The notes beneath the pieces are model-generated. The model did no database searches. It was not told where the DNA came from and saw only the letters and a program-made list of their open reading frames with translations. The translations under genes and the position numbers were made by a program. Source: Acidimicrobiia bacterium (GTDB taxonomy: Bacteria > Actinomycetota > Acidimicrobiia > Acidimicrobiales > JANYDT01). Taken from it: a stretch of DNA of 59,494 nucleotides. The DNA lies in assembly GCA_031418035.1 (NCBI GenBank), contig JANOWU010000306.1:1-59494 (forward strand), written 5' to 3'. Below are positions 19,250 to 33,463 of this stretch, piece by piece (within the stretch, counting starts at the first letter, position 1; each line of letters begins with the position of its first letter).

Positions 19250-20299
19250 TCAGCGAACCGCAGCGAAGGAGTCGAGCAACAGCGCGGGGTCGATACCGGT
19301 GACCTGCTCGACGCCTCTCGGACCATCGAGCACGAAGGTCAACCCATCGAGCGCCTTCTTGTCGCGCCCCATAAGGGCAACGAGTTCCTCGTTCGATGCC
19401 GCGATACTCGCCGGGATTGTCATCGACAGGTCATACCCGGCGACCACGCGTCGATGCTCGTCGACTCGTTCCGACGAAATTCGCCCCAGTCGATGAGCAA
19501 CCTCCGCGACGTACAACAGGCCGATTGCCACCGCCTCGCCGTGCATCACTTCGAACTCGCCGGCAATCTCGAGCGCATGAGCCAGGGTGTGTCCGTAGTT
19601 CAACGTGGCCCGCACACCACCCTCGCGTTCGTCGGCGGCGACGACCTTGGCCTTGATCTCCACGCATCGGGCCACCCGATCCTCCAGCGAAAGATCGCTG
19701 AAGGAGTCGGCGCCCACCGTTGCGTCCAAGAAGTGGTACTTCGCCATCTCCCCCAGACCGCTTCGTCGCTCCCGCGGGGGCATAGTTTCGAGAAACGACA
19801 GATCACACAGGACCGCACTGGGCTGCCAATATGCACCCACCAGGTTCTTGCCCTCGGGCAGGTTCACGCCGGTCTTGCCGCCGATTGCTGCGTCGATCAT
19901 TCCCAGGAGCGTTGTCGAGACGTAGATCACGGAAATCCCGCGGTGGTAACACGATGCTGCGAACCCACCGACATCGGTCACCATTCCGCCGCCCACCGCA
20001 ATGACCACGTCGTTTCGGTTCATACCCCAGGTGGCCCATTCACGGCACAGCATTTCGATGGTGGAGAGGTTCTTTTCCTTCTCGCCCGGGCCGACGAGAA
20101 AGCGCCGGTGTTCGATACCTGGGTCCAACGAACTTACGCTCGGACAGGCGTCCACGATCGACTGCTGGGTCACGACGGCCGCCCGTTTGGCCTTGGGGAC
20201 CACCGTTCTCACGATGTCGGCCAGGGCCTCTCGTGTCCCAACACCGACGTGGACGTCGTACGCCCGCCCCTCCCCCAATTGCACCGAGACCATTTTCAC
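19250..20299 (-). CDS. aroB: 3-dehydroquinate synthase
   Basis: GGGMVTDVGGF, DAAIGGKTGVN, KNLVGAY and LNYGHTLAHALE motifs. Confidence 0.97.
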   Translation of the reverse strand: MKMVSVQLGEGRAYDVHVGVGTREALADIVRTVVPKAKRAAVVTQQSIVDACPSVSSLDPGIEHRRFLVGPGEKEKNLSTIEMLCREWATWGMNRNDVVIAVGGGMVTDVGGFAASCYHRGISVIYVSTTLLGMIDAAIGGKTGVNLPEGKNLVGAYWQPSAVLCDLSFLETMPPRERRSGLGEMAKYHFLDATVGADSFSDLSLEDRVARCVEIKAKVVAADEREGGVRATLNYGHTLAHALEIAGEFEVMHGEAVAIGLLYVAEVAHRLGRISSERVDEHRRVVAGYDLSMTIPASIAASNEELVALMGRDKKALDGLTFVLDGPRGVEQVTGIDPALLLDSFAAVR

Positions 20300-20360
20300 G
20301 TCCCTATTCTGCCTCTCTGTTCCCACTTGGGGCGCGCACAGCGGTACCTTTGACGACGTC

Positions 20361-20888
20361 GTGCTCACCGAACTCGCTTCCCCCGCTGCCCTGCTTGCGG
20401 CGGCCATTTTCCTCGTCGCTGCCTCTGCAAAACTGCGGAGTAGATCGTCTACCCGTGCCGCAGTTGCGGCGTTCGGTCTCCCGACGGTTGTTTCGGTGGT
20501 GCTCGCCCCGGTGGAGATCGCCACCGGCCTGGCAATCCTGGTGACTCCCCGGATCGGGGCGGTCCTCGCCGCAGGTTTGCTGGTGCTGTTCAGCATCGTC
20601 GTGATCCGATCGCTTCGTCGAGGTGTTGCCGTGCGATGCGGGTGCTTCGGCGGCACCGACCAGCGACGCGTCGGCATCGACACCATGATCCGAAATCTGT
20701 TCCTGTTGGTCCTCACCATCGTTGCCGGCACCGCGTCGGGGACGCTTTCGAAACCAACGCTCCCGGCGATGGTGGCAGTCGGATCGGGCGCCATCGCGGC
20801 CATGCTGATCGTCGCCCTCGTACGACTCGGCGACGACGTGGGATCGGTGTTCGGGCAACGTCTTGATGGTTTGGGTGATCGCTCGTGA
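20361..20888 (+). CDS. mauE: MauE/DoxX family membrane protein
   Basis: About five TM segments with AIFLVAASAKL, VEIATG, CGCFG and IRNLFL motifs. GTG start inferred. Confidence 0.85.
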   Translation: MLTELASPAALLAAAIFLVAASAKLRSRSSTRAAVAAFGLPTVVSVVLAPVEIATGLAILVTPRIGAVLAAGLLVLFSIVVIRSLRRGVAVRCGCFGGTDQRRVGIDTMIRNLFLLVLTIVAGTASGTLSKPTLPAMVAVGSGAIAAMLIVALVRLGDDVGSVFGQRLDGLGDRS

Positions 20889-21397
20889 AGAACGGTCTCT
20901 GGACCCTGTCCTACGTCATCTTGTGGATCACGGTTGTGGTTCTCGGTGTCACCGTCGTTGCCCTGCTCCGCCAGATCGGGGTGTTGCATGCGCGCTTAGC
21001 ACCACTCGGGACGCACTTCGCCGGTGAGGGCCCCGAACTGAATTCGATCGCGCCGCCCGTTGGGCTCGAGTGGATGGCCGCTCCACTCACCACTGTCCTC
21101 TTCACCTCGACGACGTGCACCATCTGCCGCGAACTGAAACCGAGCATCGAAGCGCTCAAACGCCAGTACCGCGACCTTCGATTCGAGACGGTGGATGCCC
21201 AGGATCAGGCGGCGACCTTTGCCGCGTTCACGGTTCGATCAACGCCTTACGTTGTCACCGTCGATCGCGATGGCATCGTCCGTGGACGTGGTGTTGCCAA
21301 CAGCGTCGAACAAATCGAACAACTCATCACGGAGTCTCTTGCTACGACAACCGAAATCACCGAACACGCCCACAACGACAATCTAAGGAACGCATGA
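20885..21397 (+). CDS. mauD: MauD-like membrane-anchored thioredoxin-fold protein
   Basis: TM helix followed by LLRQIGVLHARLAP, CTIC (CxxC), STPY cis-Pro loop and GIVRGRGVANS. GTGA overlap with mauE. Confidence 0.87.
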   Translation: MKNGLWTLSYVILWITVVVLGVTVVALLRQIGVLHARLAPLGTHFAGEGPELNSIAPPVGLEWMAAPLTTVLFTSTTCTICRELKPSIEALKRQYRDLRFETVDAQDQAATFAAFTVRSTPYVVTVDRDGIVRGRGVANSVEQIEQLITESLATTTEITEHAHNDNLRNA

Positions 21398-23046
21398 GTA
21401 CCCTCGATCGACTGACGGAGTCGATGGCCCGTTGGACGGCGAAACGAACGACGCGTCGCTCGTTTCTCGCGAACGCTGGCCGCCTTGCGGTTGTCACGGC
21501 CGCCGGAAGCACGATCACCGCAGTATTGGCCAGTCAGGCACAGGCCCGGGTGTGCGGGCAGTCGGGCGTCTCCCCGAAGTGTCCAACGTATGACTGCCAG
21601 ACGCCAGGATTCTGGGGGTACTGCTGGTACGCGTCGCCCGGCTGCTGCGCCAACGGCGGTTTGAAGAAGATCTGCGATTGTTGCCTGACGGGCTGGCCGA
21701 ACGTCCAGGGGTACTGTCCCACCGGATCGTCCGTGTACTGCATCGTCGAGAGCTGTCTCGAAGATCCTCGGGTTCAGTCGGTGCCACTCGACCGATGGGC
21801 GAGCAAGAACCCGGTGTCGGCCGGAGTCGAGCGATCGTTGCTGCGTCCCGCGGCCGATACGGTTGTGGTGGCGAACGCCAGTGAAACGCTGGCGAGCATT
21901 CTCGCAGTGCCGGTGGCTGGCGAGCTCAATGCACCGATTCTTGGGATTACGGCCGACGCCCTCGCCGCCGAGGTAACGGCCGAGATCTCCCGACTCGGGG
22001 CAAAACGGGTTGTGGTCGCTGCGCCCGGCCTGGCTCCGGCAGTTCTCGAAGCAATAGGTGGACTTACGGTTGGTGGAGTCACCGTGGAGAATGTGGCCCC
22101 ATCCTCGGCGCCCGGCGACTTTGCAGGCGCTTCCCTGGAAGTCGCACGATGGCTGTATGCGCGTACTCTGCGCCTCGAGATCGTGGTCATCGGAACCGAT
22201 GGCGAGGCCGCGTCGATCGCACCGGCCGCTGCCGCCTTCGCCCGCGGTTTGCGGGCCCCCGTGCTCGTCGGTGCCGATGCCGCCCGTGCTTTTGCCGCCG
22301 AATTGTCAAGCAAACTTACGATCACGTCAGTCGGCACCTCGTTGCACGGAGTCTTCCCCGAAGCGGCAGCCTTCACCAAGGGCACACCGGCCTTCATCTC
22401 ACGAGCCCTGGCCGACCGAGTCATCGAACGCGACACCGGTGCCTTGAGCCTCGGTATAGCGGCAACCGTCACCGGCGGATTCGGGTACGTCGTTGCTGCG
22501 AACAACATCGTGCTCGTGCACGATACCGGCGTTGTCACCGACGAATTACGTGAATGGATCGGCACCCGACGCCGACGCTTCTCGCGAGGCGAAGTGTGCG
22601 TCGCTGCGCCAGGAGCATTCGACAACGCGAACATCTACCTCCTGCAATCGGCACTGAACGGGTTCGACGCCCAACACCTCGCCGGTGGTGGCGGAGACGG
22701 TCTTCCCGTGTACGCCCAGCCGATCGAGGAGCAGGTGATCGGGAAGGCCCGGGTGTCCGGAGCGCTCCCCCCTCAAATCGGTGCGGGAAAGCCCGTGCGC
22801 CGATCTCGCATCGAGGACCGCTATCCCGTACCGACCGTCGCGATGCCTCCTCCGACCTCGTGGCCCCCCGGCACCACGACCACCACGTTGCCGCCCGCAT
22901 CGGCGACGACCCTCGCTCCGTTGCGCCCGGCGTCGACGGTACCCGGAGCCGCACCGGCAGCCGGAACCACGCCGAACTCCTCGAAACCCCGCCCGAACAC
23001 GACCCCCACAACGACCAAAAAAACGCCACCCACGACAAAGAAATGA
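21394..23046 (+). CDS. Tat-exported protein: 12-Cys MauA (MADH light chain)-like domain + cell-wall-binding-2-like repeats + Pro/Thr tail
   Basis: TRRSFL twin-arginine signal ending AQA; 12 Cys and 3 Trp in ~68 aa including ICDCC; degenerate PILL-type repeats (NAPILG, RAPVLV); ATGA overlaps at both ends. Confidence 0.75.
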   Translation: MSTLDRLTESMARWTAKRTTRRSFLANAGRLAVVTAAGSTITAVLASQAQARVCGQSGVSPKCPTYDCQTPGFWGYCWYASPGCCANGGLKKICDCCLTGWPNVQGYCPTGSSVYCIVESCLEDPRVQSVPLDRWASKNPVSAGVERSLLRPAADTVVVANASETLASILAVPVAGELNAPILGITADALAAEVTAEISRLGAKRVVVAAPGLAPAVLEAIGGLTVGGVTVENVAPSSAPGDFAGASLEVARWLYARTLRLEIVVIGTDGEAASIAPAAAAFARGLRAPVLVGADAARAFAAELSSKLTITSVGTSLHGVFPEAAAFTKGTPAFISRALADRVIERDTGALSLGIAATVTGGFGYVVAANNIVLVHDTGVVTDELREWIGTRRRRFSRGEVCVAAPGAFDNANIYLLQSALNGFDAQHLAGGGGDGLPVYAQPIEEQVIGKARVSGALPPQIGAGKPVRRSRIEDRYPVPTVAMPPPTSWPPGTTTTTLPPASATTLAPLRPASTVPGAAPAAGTTPNSSKPRPNTTPTTTKKTPPTTKK

Positions 23047-23699
23047 GCGCCCTTGCGGCCGTCGCCGTGCTTGCGTCGTTCCTCGCCGGACTGCGCTCGC
23101 TCTGGTCACCTTGAGGCCTCTCGGTCGCCGAGACCGTTCTGCCTTCCGTGCGAGGGCCAGGAAAGTTCCTCACTGCGGTCGTGTTGCTCACCACGCTTAC
23201 TATTCCTGCAGTAGCGCTCAGTGCCGTTCTTGCCCTGGTGATCGAAGCGACGCTGCCCGAATCGCTTCGGCTCGGCACCCAATGGGTCGTTTTGGGTATC
23301 ACCCTGGCCCTCGAAGTGCTCGGCGTGCGGACCTTGGCGATTCATCGCCAGGTTCCCCAGTGGTGGGGGCACCGCTATGGTCCGGTTGCGGCCGCTGCGC
23401 GCTACGGCCTTCGCATGGGCGTTGGACCGGCAACCATTCTGTCCTCCTGGTTTTGGTGGACGGGCGTCGTCCTCGCCGCGATGGCATCGGTGCGATGGAG
23501 CGTCGTGAGCGGCGTCGTGTTCGCCGCATCGAGATTCGCCACCATGTACGCGTTGGCGTGGCGCAATCCCACCGGCGTCGAGATGGCCAACCGTGTTCGC
23601 ACGGTGGAGTCGTGGCGAACTCGCGCACGAATGCTGGCTATCGCCGCAATGGTGATCGCTTCCGGGGCAACAGCTCTGGGTCAGATTGCTGCGCGTTGA
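23043..23699 (+). CDS. MauF/DsbD-like membrane protein with in-frame TGA (candidate selenocysteine) at codon 24
   Basis: ATG overlaps the previous stop. Reads ...RSLWSP-TGA(23112)-GLSV... and stays open to 23699. RQVPQWW and YGLRMGVG..T motifs. Confidence 0.72.
23115..23135 (+). promoter_or_regulatory. Candidate bacterial SECIS hairpin
   Basis: GG-CC-TCTCGG-TCG-CCGAGA-CC begins immediately 3' of the in-frame TGA. Confidence 0.45.
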
Positions 23700-23705
23700 C
23701 CATCG

Positions 23706-25031
23706 CTACGACGCGTCGCTCGCCACTCGAAACAACGTGTCCTCATCGAATGCGCGACCGAGCAGGTCGATGCCGATTTGCGGAAAGCCGTTCGCCAATG
23801 GACCGGGAACGGCCAGCGCGGGGAGACCACTGTTGGCGGACAACCAGCAGTTCCCGGTGATCTGCTTCGCCCCTCGGCGTCCCGGAGAAGCGATCGTGGT
23901 CGGGTAGGCAATTGCGTCGAGGTTCTGCTTGTCGAGAAGCTCGAGAATTCGAGTTCGTAAGCGCGCTTGCGAAGTTAGCCTGGAGGCGTACGCTGCGTTC
24001 TTGGGCAACGTCCACGGAACTTCACCTCGACGCCAGAGCGAACGCGCCCTCTCGAACTCGTCGTCGATGACGGACGCACCAACCAGACCCGTAGATCCGA
24101 TATCCACAACGACGTATCCGTTGGCACGAAGAATGCCGACCGGAGAGCCGGCCCCGCGATCCACCCTGCCGAATCCCCCGAACACACCGATCCGACGACT
24201 TCGCTCGCGCGCAGGAGCTTGCCTTGCCCCAAGAGTCAAAGGATCGAGGGCGTCGGGTTGCGAGATGACGTCGAACAGCAGCTGAAGATCGTCGACGTTG
24301 CGGGCCAACGGTCCCACGACGTCTTGGGTCGGCGAGAGGGGAACGACGCCATGCCGGCTCACCGCGCCTTTCGTCGGCCGCAATCCGAATATGCCATTCG
24401 CCGACGCCGGATAGCGAATCGAACCGCAGGTATCTGTACCAAGTGCGATGTCGACCATCCCCGTCGCAACGGCGACGGCACTCCCCCCGCTCGAACCCAG
24501 CGGAGAACGGTTGGGGTCGAACGCGTTGCCCGTGGAGCCAAACTCGCTGACCGAGCGGGTGCCCCGGGCCCACGAATCCATGTTCGTCGCCCCCACGATG
24601 ATGCCGCCGGCCTCAAGTATCTGACGCACAACGAAAGCATCGACTACCGGACGCGATGGGCTGCGGTTCGTGTGACGCACCCCGGCGCTTGCCGGCAGCG
24701 TCGCAAGGTCGATGTTCGCCTTGATCGCAATCGTCCGTCGATCGAGCACCCCACTCGTGGTTTCGCCGAACTCACCATCGCGTTGTCGAGCGATCGCGAC
24801 TGCGTCTTCGTTTCTGGCGATGAACGCCCCGAAGCGCTGGTCCTCACGCATGATCGTCGCCAGGGCATCACGGGCAATCTGTTCGCGGCTGAGGCCGGGC
24901 GATGTGATCGATGCGGTCGGCTGAGCGACGTTTGCCGTCGCCGAGGCCGAGGCCGAGGCCGAGGCCGACAAGACGGCGACGGCAACGCCAAGCGCGAGAG
25001 CGCCCGAGAAGGCACCCGACCGCACGATCAC
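23706..25031 (-). CDS. Secreted amidase-signature family enzyme
   Basis: AIKANI (Lys), GSSGGSA and GTDTCGSIRYPA. Signal peptide present. GTG overlaps the pbpC stop. Confidence 0.88.
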   Translation of the reverse strand: MIVRSGAFSGALALGVAVAVLSASASASASATANVAQPTASITSPGLSREQIARDALATIMREDQRFGAFIARNEDAVAIARQRDGEFGETTSGVLDRRTIAIKANIDLATLPASAGVRHTNRSPSRPVVDAFVVRQILEAGGIIVGATNMDSWARGTRSVSEFGSTGNAFDPNRSPLGSSGGSAVAVATGMVDIALGTDTCGSIRYPASANGIFGLRPTKGAVSRHGVVPLSPTQDVVGPLARNVDDLQLLFDVISQPDALDPLTLGARQAPARERSRRIGVFGGFGRVDRGAGSPVGILRANGYVVVDIGSTGLVGASVIDDEFERARSLWRRGEVPWTLPKNAAYASRLTSQARLRTRILELLDKQNLDAIAYPTTIASPGRRGAKQITGNCWLSANSGLPALAVPGPLANGFPQIGIDLLGRAFDEDTLFRVASDAS

Positions 25032-27376: not shown

Positions 27377-30300
27377 CTACGCCGCCGCCTTTGGCGGGGA
27401 AATCTTGACCGTTGTCGCCTTGGTTCGACCCATGACCTCGCTGCGATACATCTCCTCGACCTGGGCCGGAGGTGCCACGAAGGTACCCGGTGCCGTGGCC
27501 CGGGCGACGTAGGTGTAGACGAACGAACCCGGTTCGAGCCACGTGGCAAACAGCAGCACACGATCGTCGCGAATCTCGGTGTGATCGACGCCAGCCTGCC
27601 ACGGCGACCTCGGAGCCGCGCTGGGCTCACCGTCAGAATCTTCGCCTCGCAACTCTTCCGACGAGGTCGTGGTCAGCTGGGCATTCAACGCCTCGAACCC
27701 GGCAGGCAACAAGTCTTCAATGGCCACGTTCGAACGTTGTTGCGGCGACGACACCCGCAGGGTTACCCGGACAAGATCACCGGCGGCGAAGGACGTCGCC
27801 GATGCCGACGATGCCGACGATCGGCCCGTCGGCTTCTTCACACTCTCGGCGGCACGAGCGGCGACGGGGTCGAACAGCGCGTAGGAGCGTTCGATGGTGA
27901 AGCCCTGATCGATAGCGAGCAGACGTTGAGCCGGAACCGCGTACCGTAAGCGCGCTGACCAGTTCAGCGAACCGGTACCGATCGCTTTCACCACGAAGTC
28001 CTTGCCGGCCGCTGCGGCGTCTTTGATGGGAGTGGAATTCGAACGCACCTCAAGCGATCGCCCGTTGAACGACTGGTCGACCAACGTCTTCGTGCCGAGG
28101 GTGATGACCGTGGCGAGCTTCGGTGCCTGCGCTTCCGTTGTGGACGCAACCTGCACCAGTGCGTCGAGCGCTTCGCCGCTCTCCAGCGTATTCCCCCACG
28201 TGCCGCGGGTCCGAGCCCCAACAAGCCACGTTGCCATCTTCGGGATCAGCGGATGCTTCGCGTCGACTCTGCTCAGCAACGACAGGAGCAGCGACGTGTC
28301 ACGAACCGATCGGCCCGATGTGCTCGAAACCAAATACGACAGACCGGGCGAGCCGTCATAGTCGAGCCCAGATTGTACGAATGCGCGGTCGTTTTCGATA
28401 CGCACCGATGCGAGCAAATCGGAGAACAGCGTGGTGGTCCGGTCGCTGACCTCGCCGGCTTCGAGCATGGCGCGAAGCAGGTACACCTGTTCTTCGAAGG
28501 GCAGCTGGTAGCGGTCCGTATAGAGCGCGTCGACCGAGGCCGTCTCCGGCTTCCCTTCCCGGGCGAGCACGTACGCCACGAGGGCACGAACGGGACCGAG
28601 GTCATACCCTTCCTCGGAAGCGAACTCATCGTCGCTGGCGACGAAGCCGACGCTCGCCTGGAGTGATTTCGTAAGCCCACGAATCATTCCCGCCGGCACG
28701 CTTATCTTTGCCGCTTTCGCATCACGAAGTAGCACAAGCGTACGTGCGCTGAGGTACGGATCCACCGCATCGGTGCCGGGCCAGTACGAAAGGCCCCCAA
28801 CGGACGTCTGGAACGGTCGAAGCAGGCGCAGCTCGCGAGCCACGACCGACTTCAGATTTTTCGGAACGCCGGGAAGAGCGAACTGTTCGTCGAGTTGGGC
28901 CAGCTTCAACAGCACGCGGATCCGCGAGGTCCGCTGCTCCAGACACCCGTACGGATACTCGACAAGATCTCTGATCGAGTTCTGCAACCCGGCAAGACTC
29001 GATGTCGAAACCGAAACATCGAGCCCCCCGAGTCCGGGAAGGGCATCGGGCGGCGTCGAGACTCGTTCGGTCGGAGAAACACTTCCGGCCGAGGTTGCCG
29101 CGACCGTTCCGCTCGTTGCGACAACCGCAAGTCGTTGGGTGACGGTCACGGGGAATGAGCCGGCGACCTTGTCGGAGGTCTCGCCGGACGTCGCTCCGTT
29201 GACGCCGCCGGAGAACACGAGGTTTCCCCGGCCAGTCTTGGTGGCACGGAACGGAAAGCGAACTTCGACCGGTTTGTCGCTCACCGACGCGACCGTGATC
29301 TCGGCTGGACCGCTCAGCGCCAGACTGTCGTCGGAAAGTGCCACTCGCACTGTTACCGGCCCGGTCGTGCCCGTTCGATTGAATACCACGACGCCGGCCT
29401 CGAACGTGTCGCCCACGTTCACGAATCTCGGCAACGCCGGTTGCAGCATCAACGGCTTACGAACTTCGACCGTGGACTTCGCGACGCCGAACTGGTCGAC
29501 ATCGGACGCCGCGACGGCAATGATTCGATAGGCCGTCAGCGACTCCGGGAGCTTCACGTCGACCGACGCTTTTCCGGACGACGGCACGTCGACCGCACCG
29601 GCCCATACGGCCAGGGTACGGAAGTCCTTGCGAATTCCCTCGCCGACTGCTGAGCTTCCCCCACCGCCGCCGTCGACGACATCTCCGCCACTTTCGTCGC
29701 CCTTGTCATCGTCCGATATCGACTGAAGGCGCATACGGGAGTCGGCGGTGTTCACCTGGAGCTGACGCTCCGAATAAAAGGTGCTCAACAGGTCTGGTTC
29801 GGTATAGCCGGTGAGACGTAACACGCCTTCGTCGACCGCCCAAAGCGTCACCTCAGCAGGCGAAGCAACATCCTTCGCATCCTTGATCTCCACATCGACC
29901 TTGGTGCTTTCGCCGGGAAGGAACGACGATTGCGACGTCGATGCCTTGACCTGCAACGTGCGGGTCGTCGGTGGAACCGAGAGAGACTCGGTCACCGATA
30001 AGACCTGTGGCTTGCCGTTTGCGATGGCTCGCTGTTTCGGGTCCTTGGGCAATGCACCGAACAACGTCACCGTCACGTAAATATTCGGTGCCGATGCTTT
30101 GTCGATGGGCACTTCTACGGTGCTCGCCGACGACGGAAGTGAGATGCGCTTGGACGCGACAACTCCTGCGCGCTCGATCGTCAACATGCCCTCGGCCTTC
30201 TCCCAAGGTGACTTGACCAGGATCACTGCGCGATCGCCGGGTTGATATGAGGTCTTATCGGTTACGAGGGACACCGTCGGTTCTTCACCGGCGCCTTCCC

Positions 30301-33300
30301 ATGCCTGATAGCCCGGCCCCGAAGCGTAAAGCGTCGTGCCCGATTCGACCCAGTTTCCACGAGGGTCGGCTCCGTAGACACGAATTTCGTAGTATCCCGA
30401 TTTCGGCGGGAGGAGGTTCACCGAAACAGGTTTCGCTTGGGTCGTGATCGGTTGGGTCGTGATCGTCTTCACCTCGCGAGTACCGATCTCGGAAACGGAA
30501 CCGTCTTCGTTTTGACGATTGACGTACTTCCATTCCCAGAGGATGAGTTCGACGGTTGCCTTCTTGCCGACGACCGGCGTACCGTCGGGCTTCACCGACA
30601 CGATGTCGACCTTCATTGGCTTGTTCGCCTCGGCCACACCTTTAGTGCGAACCCCGAAGTAGTACTCCCCCGGGTGCACCGTAATGCTTGTCCGGTCGGA
30701 GAAGGCCTGACGGCTGACGTCCTTCACCGTGGACTCGACCTCGATTTCATATGCGCGCGAACGAGCCTTGCTGATCGGGACCTGCTTCGAAATCGACACG
30801 TGTCCGACGTTGTCGAGTGTGGAATCGTTGGTGACGAACACTTCCCCGGAAAGATTCTCTCCGCAGGGAGACAACTCACTGTCGACGCACACGAAATCGA
30901 AGGTGAAGTCCGATAGTTCGCGCTGTGTGATTCGCGGACCGGTGCCGTACGTCCAGCGAGCGGTCAACGACGCGTCGGCACCGGCCATGGGCGCACCGAA
31001 CAGGTATCGGCCATCGGCGTCGGCACGCAGTCGATCACCGCGCACGACCTCCGGCGTCGTCGGCGTCACGTCGACGACGAAGTCCGGTTTGCGATAGGCC
31101 GCCACCAGCATCGACGTTGAGGCGGGTCCCGCGGTGACGTAGTAAGTACCCTGCGCGCCCGACAGAGGAATCTTCACGGTCGTTTCGAACGAGCCCCGAT
31201 CGCTGAGCTCCACGTTCTTCTTCGCGATCATGAGGCCCTGCGGATCGGTCACCTGCAACTCCAACGTGGCACCCTTCGCAGGAAACGCGAGGCCCGCCGG
31301 TGTCTCCGTGCGCATGACCCCTTTGAGGTGGGCCTCCTCTCCTAACTTGTACACGCCCCGCTCGGCGAACAGCGACCCGTTGCGCAGTTCGCCACGTTCG
31401 ATCGGCCATTCGCGATCTAACGGTGTCTTCTTCACGACATCTGCGTTGTCGTCCTCGTAGTACGGCGCATCGTCGCCCCACGAACGCCACCGCGACTGGG
31501 CATAGGCCAGGTCTCCCTTGGTTTCGACCACCGCGACCACCTCACAGACCTCGCAGTCCTTCAAGGTTTTACCGGGAGCGGTCACGAAGCCGTCGGCGGA
31601 CGTCTTCCCAACGAAGAACGCCTTGCTACTTGCACCGGCGTAGAGCCGGACGGTTGCCCCCGAAACGGCGCGACCCGAGTCAAGTGCGGTCACGGCGACG
31701 AACACGTTGGCCGGCGACGACTTCAGCGTGATTCCGAGGTTCGTTCGTTGCACGAGCGCGCTCCCCCACCCGAACCCGTCGACACCGGTACCTTCGCCTG
31801 CCTTCGTGGCTGCCACGCTTCGCCGATTCAACTCGGCGGAGTCTGCTTTCGTCCACGGCTCACCGTCACGGTTGAAGCGGCTGTTGACGCGGTAGGTGCG
31901 TGGACGCGCCGCGACCAGATACACGCCGGTCTCACCCTTCTTTCCTGCGGGCAGGACCTGGTTCACGTCGGTATCGGCGGCCCCATTCAGTTTCGTGACG
32001 ATTGCGGCTTCCTTGTTCAGGTCCAACGGCTTCGCCTTCGGAAAGCCGGCGTAGGAACGAACGACGTCGACGATGTCGTCGGCGGTGAGCTTGCGCTCCA
32101 CGCGATCGACCTCCATCACGTTGCGCGATCGAAGCCGCACGCCCGCCGAATCGATGGCAAGGATTCGCTCGCCCGACCGAACGTTGGCATAGCCGTCGAA
32201 TCGCCCGAACGACACCGTCGTGATCGACTTGTACCCGAGCGCGAGTCCTGAACTCGAATCGATCACATCGGGATCGATTTCGATTTGATAGGTATGCATA
32301 GGTTCGAGGGATGCCCATCGAAGTTCGAGCGGTGACTCCCATGAGGATGAAATGGTTCCTCCGTCGAGATTTTCGAAAGGCGCATATATTTGAACGGGTT
32401 TCGTGACACCCGCCGTGATGTCTTTTACTCGGACCTTGCCGTCCGCCGAATCGGGCCTGGGACTGAACCCGATGCTCACCAGGCTCCATGACTGAGAAGG
32501 GTTGCAGCCGACCCGACAACCGCGGGTCACGATCAACGGCGTGCGAAACGTCGGGAGTCGCCCAGAGCGTTGTGCCTTGGAAAGCACGGAGCCTTCGTTG
32601 CTCTTGATCCCTGCACCGAATTCGAGGCGGGCCACACCGTCGAGCGGGGTTTGCGTGACGGACAACCGGTAGCAGAGATCGACGGAGCTGTCGGAACACG
32701 GTGTGGGATTGGGGGACAGCAGCCTCGGCGAAATCGACGCGAGAACCTCTGGTCGAGCGGATGCGCTGGCAAGGTACTTCGTGAGTGTGGCAACTCCTGT
32801 TGCGTTCGCCGCACGCATCAGGCCGAGGTCGTTCGTGCTCGGTTCGTAGCGTTTCGCGGAAACGTTGACCCTGCGAACCACGACCTTCGTCATCGACGCC
32901 ATCGACGCAGCATCGATGGGTTGGTCGCAGTACACGAGAAAGTTCGGACCTTCCATTCCTCGCGACTCACACGAAACGGTGGGCGTCGTGAAAGCCAACA
33001 CGTGCGGGCTGGTCATCGTCGTGCCATCGAGCGCCTTCAACCCGGCGAGTGTCGCTTGGATCTTCGTCGAACGGGGCAACGCCCTCAACGGCGTGAAGAT
33101 CAACATGCGTGTCGAGGCCCACCGAAACGATCCGGCCACGGGCGGTTGAATCGAAACGTACGACGCCGGATCGAGGCCCCGATCTTCGGCTGTCAGGTCG
33201 ACGACGGGCCGATCGAAAAGCCATCTCAGCTCGGTGGAATCGCCGAGCGTACGCAACTCTCCCGTCGGCGACGCAAAGACCACGGTCAGCGCCGCGTTCT

Positions 33301-33463
33301 GTTTGGGCGCAGCGAGGCGCTCATAGCTCGCCGACGGACGCGTTGTCACGGGAGCCTTCCCCGTCGTCGACGTGGCCCGAGCCGTCGGATTGGAAAACGG
33401 CAGGAGCACCCATGCGGTCAACAGCGCGGGGCCAACAACACAAACAGACTTCCAACGACGCAT
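27377..33463 (-). CDS. Bacterial alpha-2-macroglobulin (MG2 domain protein)
   Basis: 2028 aa with ERGVYKLGE, AVDEGVL, Gly-rich bait region then IRKDF, YPYGCLEQ thioester motif, WGNTLES, DLLPAGFE and EEMY. Confidence 0.95.
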   Translation of the reverse strand: MRRWKSVCVVGPALLTAWVLLPFSNPTARATSTTGKAPVTTRPSASYERLAAPKQNAALTVVFASPTGELRTLGDSTELRWLFDRPVVDLTAEDRGLDPASYVSIQPPVAGSFRWASTRMLIFTPLRALPRSTKIQATLAGLKALDGTTMTSPHVLAFTTPTVSCESRGMEGPNFLVYCDQPIDAASMASMTKVVVRRVNVSAKRYEPSTNDLGLMRAANATGVATLTKYLASASARPEVLASISPRLLSPNPTPCSDSSVDLCYRLSVTQTPLDGVARLEFGAGIKSNEGSVLSKAQRSGRLPTFRTPLIVTRGCRVGCNPSQSWSLVSIGFSPRPDSADGKVRVKDITAGVTKPVQIYAPFENLDGGTISSSWESPLELRWASLEPMHTYQIEIDPDVIDSSSGLALGYKSITTVSFGRFDGYANVRSGERILAIDSAGVRLRSRNVMEVDRVERKLTADDIVDVVRSYAGFPKAKPLDLNKEAAIVTKLNGAADTDVNQVLPAGKKGETGVYLVAARPRTYRVNSRFNRDGEPWTKADSAELNRRSVAATKAGEGTGVDGFGWGSALVQRTNLGITLKSSPANVFVAVTALDSGRAVSGATVRLYAGASSKAFFVGKTSADGFVTAPGKTLKDCEVCEVVAVVETKGDLAYAQSRWRSWGDDAPYYEDDNADVVKKTPLDREWPIERGELRNGSLFAERGVYKLGEEAHLKGVMRTETPAGLAFPAKGATLELQVTDPQGLMIAKKNVELSDRGSFETTVKIPLSGAQGTYYVTAGPASTSMLVAAYRKPDFVVDVTPTTPEVVRGDRLRADADGRYLFGAPMAGADASLTARWTYGTGPRITQRELSDFTFDFVCVDSELSPCGENLSGEVFVTNDSTLDNVGHVSISKQVPISKARSRAYEIEVESTVKDVSRQAFSDRTSITVHPGEYYFGVRTKGVAEANKPMKVDIVSVKPDGTPVVGKKATVELILWEWKYVNRQNEDGSVSEIGTREVKTITTQPITTQAKPVSVNLLPPKSGYYEIRVYGADPRGNWVESGTTLYASGPGYQAWEGAGEEPTVSLVTDKTSYQPGDRAVILVKSPWEKAEGMLTIERAGVVASKRISLPSSASTVEVPIDKASAPNIYVTVTLFGALPKDPKQRAIANGKPQVLSVTESLSVPPTTRTLQVKASTSQSSFLPGESTKVDVEIKDAKDVASPAEVTLWAVDEGVLRLTGYTEPDLLSTFYSERQLQVNTADSRMRLQSISDDDKGDESGGDVVDGGGGGSSAVGEGIRKDFRTLAVWAGAVDVPSSGKASVDVKLPESLTAYRIIAVAASDVDQFGVAKSTVEVRKPLMLQPALPRFVNVGDTFEAGVVVFNRTGTTGPVTVRVALSDDSLALSGPAEITVASVSDKPVEVRFPFRATKTGRGNLVFSGGVNGATSGETSDKVAGSFPVTVTQRLAVVATSGTVAATSAGSVSPTERVSTPPDALPGLGGLDVSVSTSSLAGLQNSIRDLVEYPYGCLEQRTSRIRVLLKLAQLDEQFALPGVPKNLKSVVARELRLLRPFQTSVGGLSYWPGTDAVDPYLSARTLVLLRDAKAAKISVPAGMIRGLTKSLQASVGFVASDDEFASEEGYDLGPVRALVAYVLAREGKPETASVDALYTDRYQLPFEEQVYLLRAMLEAGEVSDRTTTLFSDLLASVRIENDRAFVQSGLDYDGSPGLSYLVSSTSGRSVRDTSLLLSLLSRVDAKHPLIPKMATWLVGARTRGTWGNTLESGEALDALVQVASTTEAQAPKLATVITLGTKTLVDQSFNGRSLEVRSNSTPIKDAAAAGKDFVVKAIGTGSLNWSARLRYAVPAQRLLAIDQGFTIERSYALFDPVAARAAESVKKPTGRSSASSASATSFAAGDLVRVTLRVSSPQQRSNVAIEDLLPAGFEALNAQLTTTSSEELRGEDSDGEPSAAPRSPWQAGVDHTEIRDDRVLLFATWLEPGSFVYTYVARATAPGTFVAPPAQVEEMYRSEVMGRTKATTVKISPPKAAA

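Follow-up and report, generated by a model that had tools for sequence, protein, structure and literature searches.

Proteins of the DsbD/CcdA superfamily are membrane proteins that carry two conserved redox cysteines, located in helices 1 and 4, and the solved CcdA/DsbD fold is built of two three-helix repeats. A second relevant system is the pathway of MauE and MauD: MauE has recently been shown to replace DsbB, and MauD has been proposed as a DsbA-like partner (bioRxiv 10.64898/2026.03.05.709764). Among known selenoproteins, the nearest entry in Table 1 of a 2026 review (PMC13188914) is TsoB (NF045694, motif UxxxxU), which has a DsbD-like membrane part. Here we describe a gene in a 59,494-nucleotide stretch of DNA from an Acidimicrobiia bacterium (assembly GCA_031418035.1, contig JANOWU010000306.1, positions 1 to 59,494 of the forward strand; hereafter the window), which we read as encoding a DsbD/CcdA-like membrane selenoprotein whose single selenocysteine (Sec) would exchange with a MauD-like thioredoxin. 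Judged from sequence, we put the probability of this whole explanation at about 0.85, with the function as its weak part; that the in-frame TGA at 23112–23114 is a real Sec codon we take to be very probable. The gene and its putative Sec codon are as follows.

Positions 23043 to 23699, forward strand: gene of the putative Sec protein, a multi-helix membrane protein of 218 residues with Sec at residue 24.

Positions 23112 to 23114, forward strand: UGA, putative Sec24 codon, inside an invariant W-S-P-U-G motif; TGA in 28 of 30 homologs, TGT in two of 30.

The ATG at 23043–23045 shares the tetranucleotide ATGA with the stop codon of the upstream gene (TGA, 23044–23046). Twenty-three sense codons, ATG included, precede the TGA and encode MSALAAVAVLASFLAGLRSLWSP, which ends in SLWSP. 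Another 194 sense codons follow before the terminal TGA at 23697–23699, and the read-through protein has no cysteine. This layout, as well as the lack of any other Cys, agrees with the original prediction. Contigs from three other, independent sequencing runs (X3, X5 and X6, from two studies) span 23112–23114 and leave the TGA unchanged, their sole listed difference being A>G at 23037. A miscall or assembly error at the TGA is therefore excluded, including the misread TGC or TGT that had been considered at the outset. Short contigs of runs X2 and X3 match only a 35-nucleotide core (23103–23137, with 2–4 differences) and then diverge. They are evidently homologs of other organisms in the same sediments and, as only the core matches, the nucleotides around the Sec codon must be unusually conserved.

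To see what homologs carry at this column, we searched 40 related genomes in all six frames (L-numbers label loci). A homolog was found in 30 of them, 28 with an in-frame TGA and two without. The latter (L047 and L048) are the most distant homologs, and both have TGT in place of the TGA of W-S-P-U-G, so that all 30 relatives have either TGA or a Cys codon at the column on which the original prediction hinged. Identity to the window protein is only 21–47% among these relatives, and despite this W21, S22, P23, U24, G25 and S27 are invariant (alignment A1, from which L037 and L045, cut by contig ends, were left out). The best-conserved residues of the protein include those flanking the TGA on either side.

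We then considered 301 genomes drawn evenly from the phylum, using a profile search. The family was detected in 65: 52 genomes with the TGA form, eight with a continuous form lacking the stop, and five with partial matches only. Eight of the 52 are flagged as unpublished (G306, G040, G212, G264, G277, G158, G087 and G057), leaving 44 without them. Several carriers, such as G202, G091, G198 and G337, are assembled in one to a few contigs and look like isolates. Forty phylum loci were fetched, none from unpublished genomes. The P-U-G column holds TGA in all 32 TGA forms fetched, in the variants WSPUG, FSPUG, F/YGPUG and FDPUG, and TGC or TGT in all eight of the others. The genome-derived Cys forms thus number 10, with TGT or TGC. 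Altogether, more than 59 genomes have the TGA at this one column, and it is conserved at 21–50% protein identity across families of the phylum. On a quick maximum-likelihood tree (68 rows, Sec column masked; L045, at <150 residues, and L054 omitted), Sec and Cys have interchanged at least three times. The rows with Cys form clades nested within Sec rows, and all 26 rows of the clade to which the window belongs have Sec.

Two features of individual loci deserve mention. The Cys forms L075–L079 (genomes G141, G248, G196, G313 and G274) have 254–490 residues after the Cys, compared to ∼195 elsewhere, which amounts to a long C-terminal extension. In five loci of genus g2 (L022, L024, L026, L028 and L035), the overlap with the upstream gene, ∼20 codons before the TGA, reads GTAA, compared to ATGA or GTGA elsewhere, and there is no ATG, GTG or TTG ahead of the Sec codon at a distance that could serve. 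These g2 genes may start at a non-canonical GTA or by termination–reinitiation.

The genome that contains the window encodes the Sec machinery. selA (407 bits), selB (256.5 bits, or 282.4 with an in-frame neighbour), selD (346 bits) and tRNA-Sec (63.6 bits) all score above their curated cut-offs, as the original prediction would have it. The selD gene (C151:10585–11526, locus L001) carries an in-frame TGA itself and is hence a selenoprotein gene (HGAGU...), with two hairpins after the TGA. There are two tRNA-Sec matches of identical score in this genome (G000), at C84:38099–38190 and C124:12699–12790, both near contig ends; these may represent one gene assembled twice or a real duplication. 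Among relatives with the TGA form, selA was found in 27 of 28, the exception being a genome that is 77% complete (G021). It was found in neither of the two Cys-form relatives (92% and 98% complete), and in 4 of the 10 related genomes that lack the family. Over the phylum sample as a whole, 207 of 301 genomes have selA, as do 48 of the 52 with the TGA form; these per-genome values are a reading of the search table, and the tally includes the unpublished G186 and G126. The four exceptions show other parts of the machinery: selB above cut-off in G273 and in G212 (unpublished), selB above cut-off together with a tRNA-Sec of 80.7 bits in G144, and in G276 a tRNA-Sec of 80.2 bits with a selB-like match of 205.6 bits, which is below cut-off.

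Bacterial Sec insertion sequence (SECIS) elements of the fdhF/selD type are stem-loops that lie within the coding region, a short way downstream of the UGA, and have G/U in the apical loop. The window has a candidate of the same kind, which differs in that its stem is short (6 bp) and that a second hairpin precedes it. The two helices are as follows.

Positions 23141 to 23157, forward strand: SECIS-like stem-loop (helix 2), GCCUUC-CGUGC-GAGGGC, pairing 23141–23146 with 23152–23157 (6 bp).

Positions 23122 to 23136, forward strand: proximal hairpin (helix 1), CGGUC-GCCGA-GACCG, pairing 23122–23126 with 23132–23136; weaker.

For this analysis, 75 nucleotides around the TGA were aligned ungapped, in codon register, for the 28 relatives (A2) and for 59 Sec forms of the phylum (A5); L054 was left out of the pairing, folding-energy and covariation analyses of the 59 sequences. 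Both helices were predicted by RNAalifold on A2. Helix 1 is paired in 82.9% of cells among the relatives, with 3 of 5 pairs changing on both sides, and in other subfamilies it takes a different register. For helix 2 the corresponding values are 94.6% and 4 of 6. Across the 59 Sec forms, helix 2 is paired in 88.7% of cells, compared to 64.8% in shuffles, and compensatory changes occur in all six pairs. Its covariation score (0.650, versus 0.218 in shuffles) was reached by none of 500 shuffles, and a control with slid partners scored at most 0.178. In several of the compensations, a synonymous third position changes along with the first position of a different codon, as with the last base of a Pro codon and the first base of a Gly/Arg codon. 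The second loop position is a nearly invariant G. In five Sec forms, the hairpin is displaced by a few bases. The stem starts 27 nucleotides after the last base of the UGA (26 nucleotides between), and the same spacing is seen in the selD of this genome, where the second hairpin starts 27 nucleotides after the TGA and has a 7-bp stem and a GUU loop. These data point to the stem-loop at 23141–23157 as a putative SECIS that would recruit SelB.

A stem-loop 3′ of the UGA had been part of the original prediction, and in that respect the covarying element bears it out, although this element is neither of the two pairings proposed then. The hairpin TCTCGG-TCG-CCGAGA (23119–23133) is present in the window but is kept no better than chance in the 28 homologs (67.9% of cells paired, versus 67.5% in shuffles). 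Pairing of 23115–23120 with 23153–23158 is possible in the window but fares no better among the same homologs (56.5% versus 55.9%). Both were rejected as SECIS.

How the gene came to be missed can be seen from the database records. Gene callers report only about 23148–23699. A search of 5.8 billion proteins gave 18 matches, of which the 16 stronger ones (E ≤ 3.5e-27) are truncated, covering 46–84% of the query, and the remaining two are weak (E ∼2e-4). The truncated forms are about 180 residues long, and where a name is given it is 'hypothetical protein'. A second search, with a profile against 1.84 billion representatives, returned 3510 matches at E ≤ 0.001, of which 1183 had E ≤ 1e-10 and 147 had E ≤ 1e-30. 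We examined 152 entries, namely the best 150 of the 3510 plus P0019 and P0020 from the first search. Sixty are full-length WSPCG proteins (about 190–430 residues), and most of the other entries start within some 25 residues after the Sec column (VAET..., MLAS..., VRR...). With the conserved TGA/Cys column, the sel genes and database entries truncated just after the TGA, the claim of a selenoprotein overlooked by ORF (open reading frame) callers holds up well.

What kind of protein is this? The AlphaFold2 (AF2) model is all-helical and of high confidence (predicted local distance difference test [pLDDT] score 93.8; predicted template-modelling [TM] score 0.90), with helices at residues 3–21, 23–31, 39–70, 73–93, 106–126, 137–148, 150–172, 178–190 and 192–217. 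Sec24 lies at the break after the first helix. Like CcdA and DsbD, then, it is a small multi-helix inner-membrane protein with its redox residue directly after a Pro in the first helix and, as putative partner, a membrane-anchored or periplasmic thioredoxin-fold protein with a CxxC motif; and for some members of the family there are weak to borderline hidden Markov model matches to the superfamily. DsbD_2 (PF13386) matches L046 with 26.8 bits, above the cut-off of 24.9, and L044 (20.9 bits), L063 (20.9 bits) and P0136 (23.2 bits) below it. DsbD_TM (PF02683) matches L081 with 22.5 bits over residues 9–193 of 223 and L089 with 18.0 bits, both below cut-off, and positions 172–258 of the DsbD model NF001419 match residues 11–94 of L081 (E 0.0035). 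In a protein atlas, a natural Cys form falls among unnamed clusters of Actinomycetota, with DsbD_2 clusters next. A match of the window protein to NIPA (9.8 bits) was judged to be noise. The genome encodes a separate, canonical DsbD_TM protein on contig C152, and a PF13386 search of the genome did not pick up the window gene. Neither Pfam nor NCBIfam has a model for the family, and no NCBIfam 20.0 model, NF045694 included, matches the 36 family members scanned.

The family differs from CcdA/DsbD in having Sec in place of Cys and in lacking the second redox Cys of the fourth helix. In 28 sequences, no Cys is conserved besides the invariant Sec/Cys column. Without this second Cys, Sec is left as the sole redox residue, and an intramolecular disulfide relay is impossible. 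The conserved TGA/Cys column thus bears out the earlier proposal of a sole redox Sec, placed after a Pro at the end of helix 1. Overall, the protein is probably a distant branch of the DsbD/CcdA superfamily. Because positive charges lie in loops 1–2, 3–4 and 5–6, we infer an N-terminus-out topology, which would place Sec in the cytoplasmic half of the membrane.

The Sec gene is the last of a four-gene operon with 4-nucleotide overlaps. The three genes before it are as follows.

Positions 20001 to 20888, forward strand: mauE-like membrane protein gene, with PF07291 at 20385–20726 (76.6 bits, against a cut-off of 27) and a C-G-C motif.

Positions 20885 to 21397, forward strand: gene of a MauD-like thioredoxin with an N-terminal membrane helix and the motif C-T-I-C (CxxC); its stop overlaps the next ATG as ATGA.

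Positions 21394 to 23046, forward strand: gene of a Cys-rich wall protein with a twin-arginine translocation (Tat) signal, three CWB2-type cell-wall-binding repeats and a Pro/Thr-rich tail.

The mauE-like ORF is listed from 20001, with its start not fixed, and its stop (TGA, 20886–20888) overlaps the GTG start of the next gene. Homologs of the thioredoxin match PF00085/PF13098 and are named thiol-disulfide isomerase/thioredoxin, one of them being named MauD by one source; C78 and C81 are invariant in 32 sequences. In the Tat protein, the signal has the motif RRSF, and 12 Cys of the Cys-rich domain are invariant among 30 homologs. Residues ∼130–430 are mostly modelled with pLDDT ≥85, and Foldseek matches the protein to the CWB2 domains of C. 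difficile Cwp8, Cwp6 and SlpA (E 1.5e-11 to 4.3e-8); pLDDT of the Cys-rich domain is below 50–60 in the AF2 model. A CWB2 triple repeat of the C. difficile S-layer type is thus found in a high-G+C genome, fused to a Tat-exported Cys-rich domain. Among the matches listed, only 1 of 120 homologs of the Tat protein bears the Pfam label CW_binding_2. Scanning 20200–24000 for promoters gave no promoter-like site, and terminator-like sites in the same region showed no excess over shuffles.

This arrangement is kept in part among relatives. In 23 of the relatives' 29 loci, the Sec gene is immediately preceded by a gene for a homolog of the Tat protein. Over the 40 phylum loci, a MauD-like thioredoxin gene adjoins the Sec gene in 38, a MauE-like gene in 21 and a gene of a Tat Cys-rich protein in 21, the last usually in a small form of ∼175 residues with 10 Cys. 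Counts for the thioredoxin, Cys-rich and MauE genes were made separately, since clustering merged their ORFs through long fused ORFs. Two loci carry natural fusions, with the Sec (P-U-G) domain N-terminal and a MauE domain with the CGC motif C-terminal (L080:2486–3697 and L087:2486–3700; PF07291 E 1e-18 and 1e-20). In a subfamily with the motif WSPUGESML (L052, L054–L067 and L073), there is no Tat Cys-rich gene nearby. Here a conserved ORF of unknown family (∼165–190 residues) comes immediately after the Sec gene in 16 loci, and another conserved ORF is found past the thioredoxin gene.

The original prediction called the gene MauF-like, and its surroundings are of the mau type: the operon resembles mau clusters in several ways. 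As with MauF, the neighbours of the membrane protein gene include genes of the mauE and mauD types, and the place of mauA is occupied by a gene for a small, Tat-exported, Cys-rich protein. It differs in that the Cys-rich partner is not a recognisable light chain of methylamine dehydrogenase. As a MauA light chain this partner was rejected: TIGR02659, whose cut-off is 196.85 bits, gives its homologs no more than 17.1 bits (E 0.0038–0.81), the matches fall mostly over the signal peptide, and the window's own Cys-rich domain gives no match. No mauB or mauG was seen in the operon, and no genome search for them was made. With respect to the MauE/MauD pathway of oxidative folding, the operon is alike in encoding a MauD-like thioredoxin and a MauE with the CXC motif. 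To this pathway the Sec protein would add a component not described in the passages searched of the preprint (bioRxiv 10.64898/2026.03.05.709764), in which the word 'selenocysteine' is absent and 'DsbD' occurs once.

The genes flanking the operon are housekeeping genes (aroB, aroQ, an amidase and a class A penicillin-binding protein). On the reverse strand at 19250–20989 is an ORF of 579 residues with 3-dehydroquinate synthase domains from residue ∼247 on. It runs antisense across the mauE-like gene, and the true start of aroB must therefore lie well inside it. A few kilobases downstream of the operon, at 27377–33463 on the reverse strand, there is an ORF of 2028 residues.

These observations can be assembled into a working model. 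Translation would start at the ATG at 23043, coupled to the upstream gene through the ATGA overlap. The stem-loop at 23141–23157 would recruit SelB with Sec-tRNA(Sec), allowing the UGA at 23112–23114 to be decoded as Sec. Sec24, the sole redox residue, would sit at the first-helix break, where DsbD/CcdA proteins carry their first redox Cys. There it may form transient selenenylsulfide bonds with the CxxC motif of the MauD-like thioredoxin, itself anchored in the membrane; possible further partners are MauE or a thiol donor in the cytoplasm. Electrons would in this way be fed to, or drained from, a machinery of disulfide formation or shuffling for exported Cys-rich proteins, and either direction is conceivable. 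Selenium combines good nucleophilicity with good leaving-group ability, and because of this one Se atom could do the job of the Cys pair of DsbD/CcdA. Taken further, the phylum-wide family might be a one-residue transmembrane redox relay, in which a single Sec replaces the Cys pair, and the missing membrane partner of MauD-type thioredoxins, working by successive selenenylsulfide exchanges between cytoplasmic and extracytoplasmic thiols. We offer this extension tentatively, and consider it rather more doubtful than not.

Several observations weigh against the selenoprotein reading or parts of it. No RNA runs are listed among the sequencing runs that contain the stretch. Helix 2 lies in P-x-x-R-G codons, which alone give some complementarity, and the Cys forms (n = 10) pair at 2.9 of the 6 positions on average, with two of them reaching 5 of 6, compared to 5.32 of 6 for Sec forms. 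Nor do the two groups differ in how stably this region folds (mean energy −12.4 kcal/mol for Sec and −12.2 kcal/mol for Cys forms). Since selA is present in 4 of the 8 Cys-form phylum genomes, and absent in the other 4, Cys forms are not confined to genomes that lack Sec. As to the fold, the window protein departs from CcdA/DsbD in having neither a model match nor a PDB fold match: no Pfam or NCBIfam family was found at E ≤ 1, and Foldseek of the AF2 model against the PDB found no fold match (best E 0.29, TM at most 0.34). A PDB sequence search with the family profile gave 0 matches at E ≤ 10. No internal 3+3 repeat was detected on comparing residues 1–98 with 99–218 by hhalign (probability 0.1), only one relative (L046) passes a DsbD-family cut-off, and the family lacks the two cysteines that define DsbD/CcdA. 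In the absence of the second Cys, the textbook mechanism cannot apply as such.

The main functional rival accepts the Sec and sees in the protein a carrier or channel, with a soft metal or chalcogen (Cu, Ni, Hg, Se or S) as its cargo and Sec as a ligand. Other membrane proteins of the DsbD_2/LysE superfamily work as carriers, and DsbD_2, the nearest Pfam family, is not made up solely of disulfide reductases. A lone redox-capable residue would suit a ligand, the Tat-exported Cys-rich partner could bind metal, and membrane selenoproteins annotated as metal transporters (MerT-like, SO_0444 family) appear in Table 1 of PMC13188914. However, the constant neighbour of the Sec gene is a CxxC thioredoxin (38 of 40 loci), and MauE, a DsbB-like disulfide oxidase (bioRxiv 10.64898/2026.03.05.709764), is encoded next to it or fused to it. 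No metal-handling gene was recognised in the operon or in the named neighbour clusters, several clusters being unnamed. On this evidence we regard a carrier as unlikely.

Explanations that dispense with Sec fare worse. Were the TGA an ordinary stop, the locus would encode a 23-residue peptide and a separate protein of ∼183 residues starting at GTG 23148. The truncated database entries, which make up 16 of the 18 protein-search matches and many of the profile-search matches, have just this appearance, and TGA also terminates the Sec gene itself and the upstream gene. But the 11 codons between the TGA and GTG 23148 (GLSVAETVLPS) are, together with the residues before the TGA, among the best conserved, the Cys forms are one continuous ORF, and in most homologs a start codon at a constant position downstream of the TGA is missing, with database entries beginning at various points. 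Given also how widely the TGA column is fixed, an ordinary stop is very improbable. Stop-codon read-through does exist in bacteria, and the UGA could in principle be read through without Sec, by near-cognate insertion of Trp or Cys or by local recoding. The alternative residue at this column, though, is always Cys, both in the 10 genome-derived forms and in all 60 full-length database forms (WSP-type pattern), and the variants WSPCS, WSPCA, YSPCG and FSPCG retain Cys too. Moreover, TGA forms accompany the Sec machinery, and the hairpin spacing is that of the genome's own selD. We give such read-through even less credence than an ordinary stop. Least probable of all is a nonsense mutation in a pseudogene, or a TGC/TGT changed by sequencing or assembly error. 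Nothing beyond the bare presence of a stop codon speaks for it, and it is already refuted by independent contigs of two studies and by the conservation of the TGA across divergent families.

The DsbD/CcdA-like selenoprotein that we favour is not among the 119 selenoprotein families that PMC13188914 lists in its Table 1. Its nearest counterpart there, TsoB, differs in having two Sec residues, a rhodanese fusion and another motif. In the literature we searched, no paper describes a membrane selenoprotein linked to DsbD, CcdA or MauE, although the supplementary lists of deep-Sep/BSepDB could include the family. We rate it as a new selenoprotein family with Cys homologs, a DsbD-like scaffold and an unusual single-Sec design. 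If this is true, thousands of database entries of the family are truncated 'hypothetical proteins' that lack the first helix and the active residue. The known selenoproteins would gain a membrane-embedded member that is frequent in one phylum (52 of the 301 genomes sampled), and the MauE/MauD disulfide pathway, only lately recognised as a general route of oxidative folding according to the preprint, would gain a fourth component. Finally, a DsbD-like protein with a single Sec raises the question of how one chalcogen atom might carry two electrons across a membrane, and the existence of Cys-form relatives and of cultured carriers makes this question testable.

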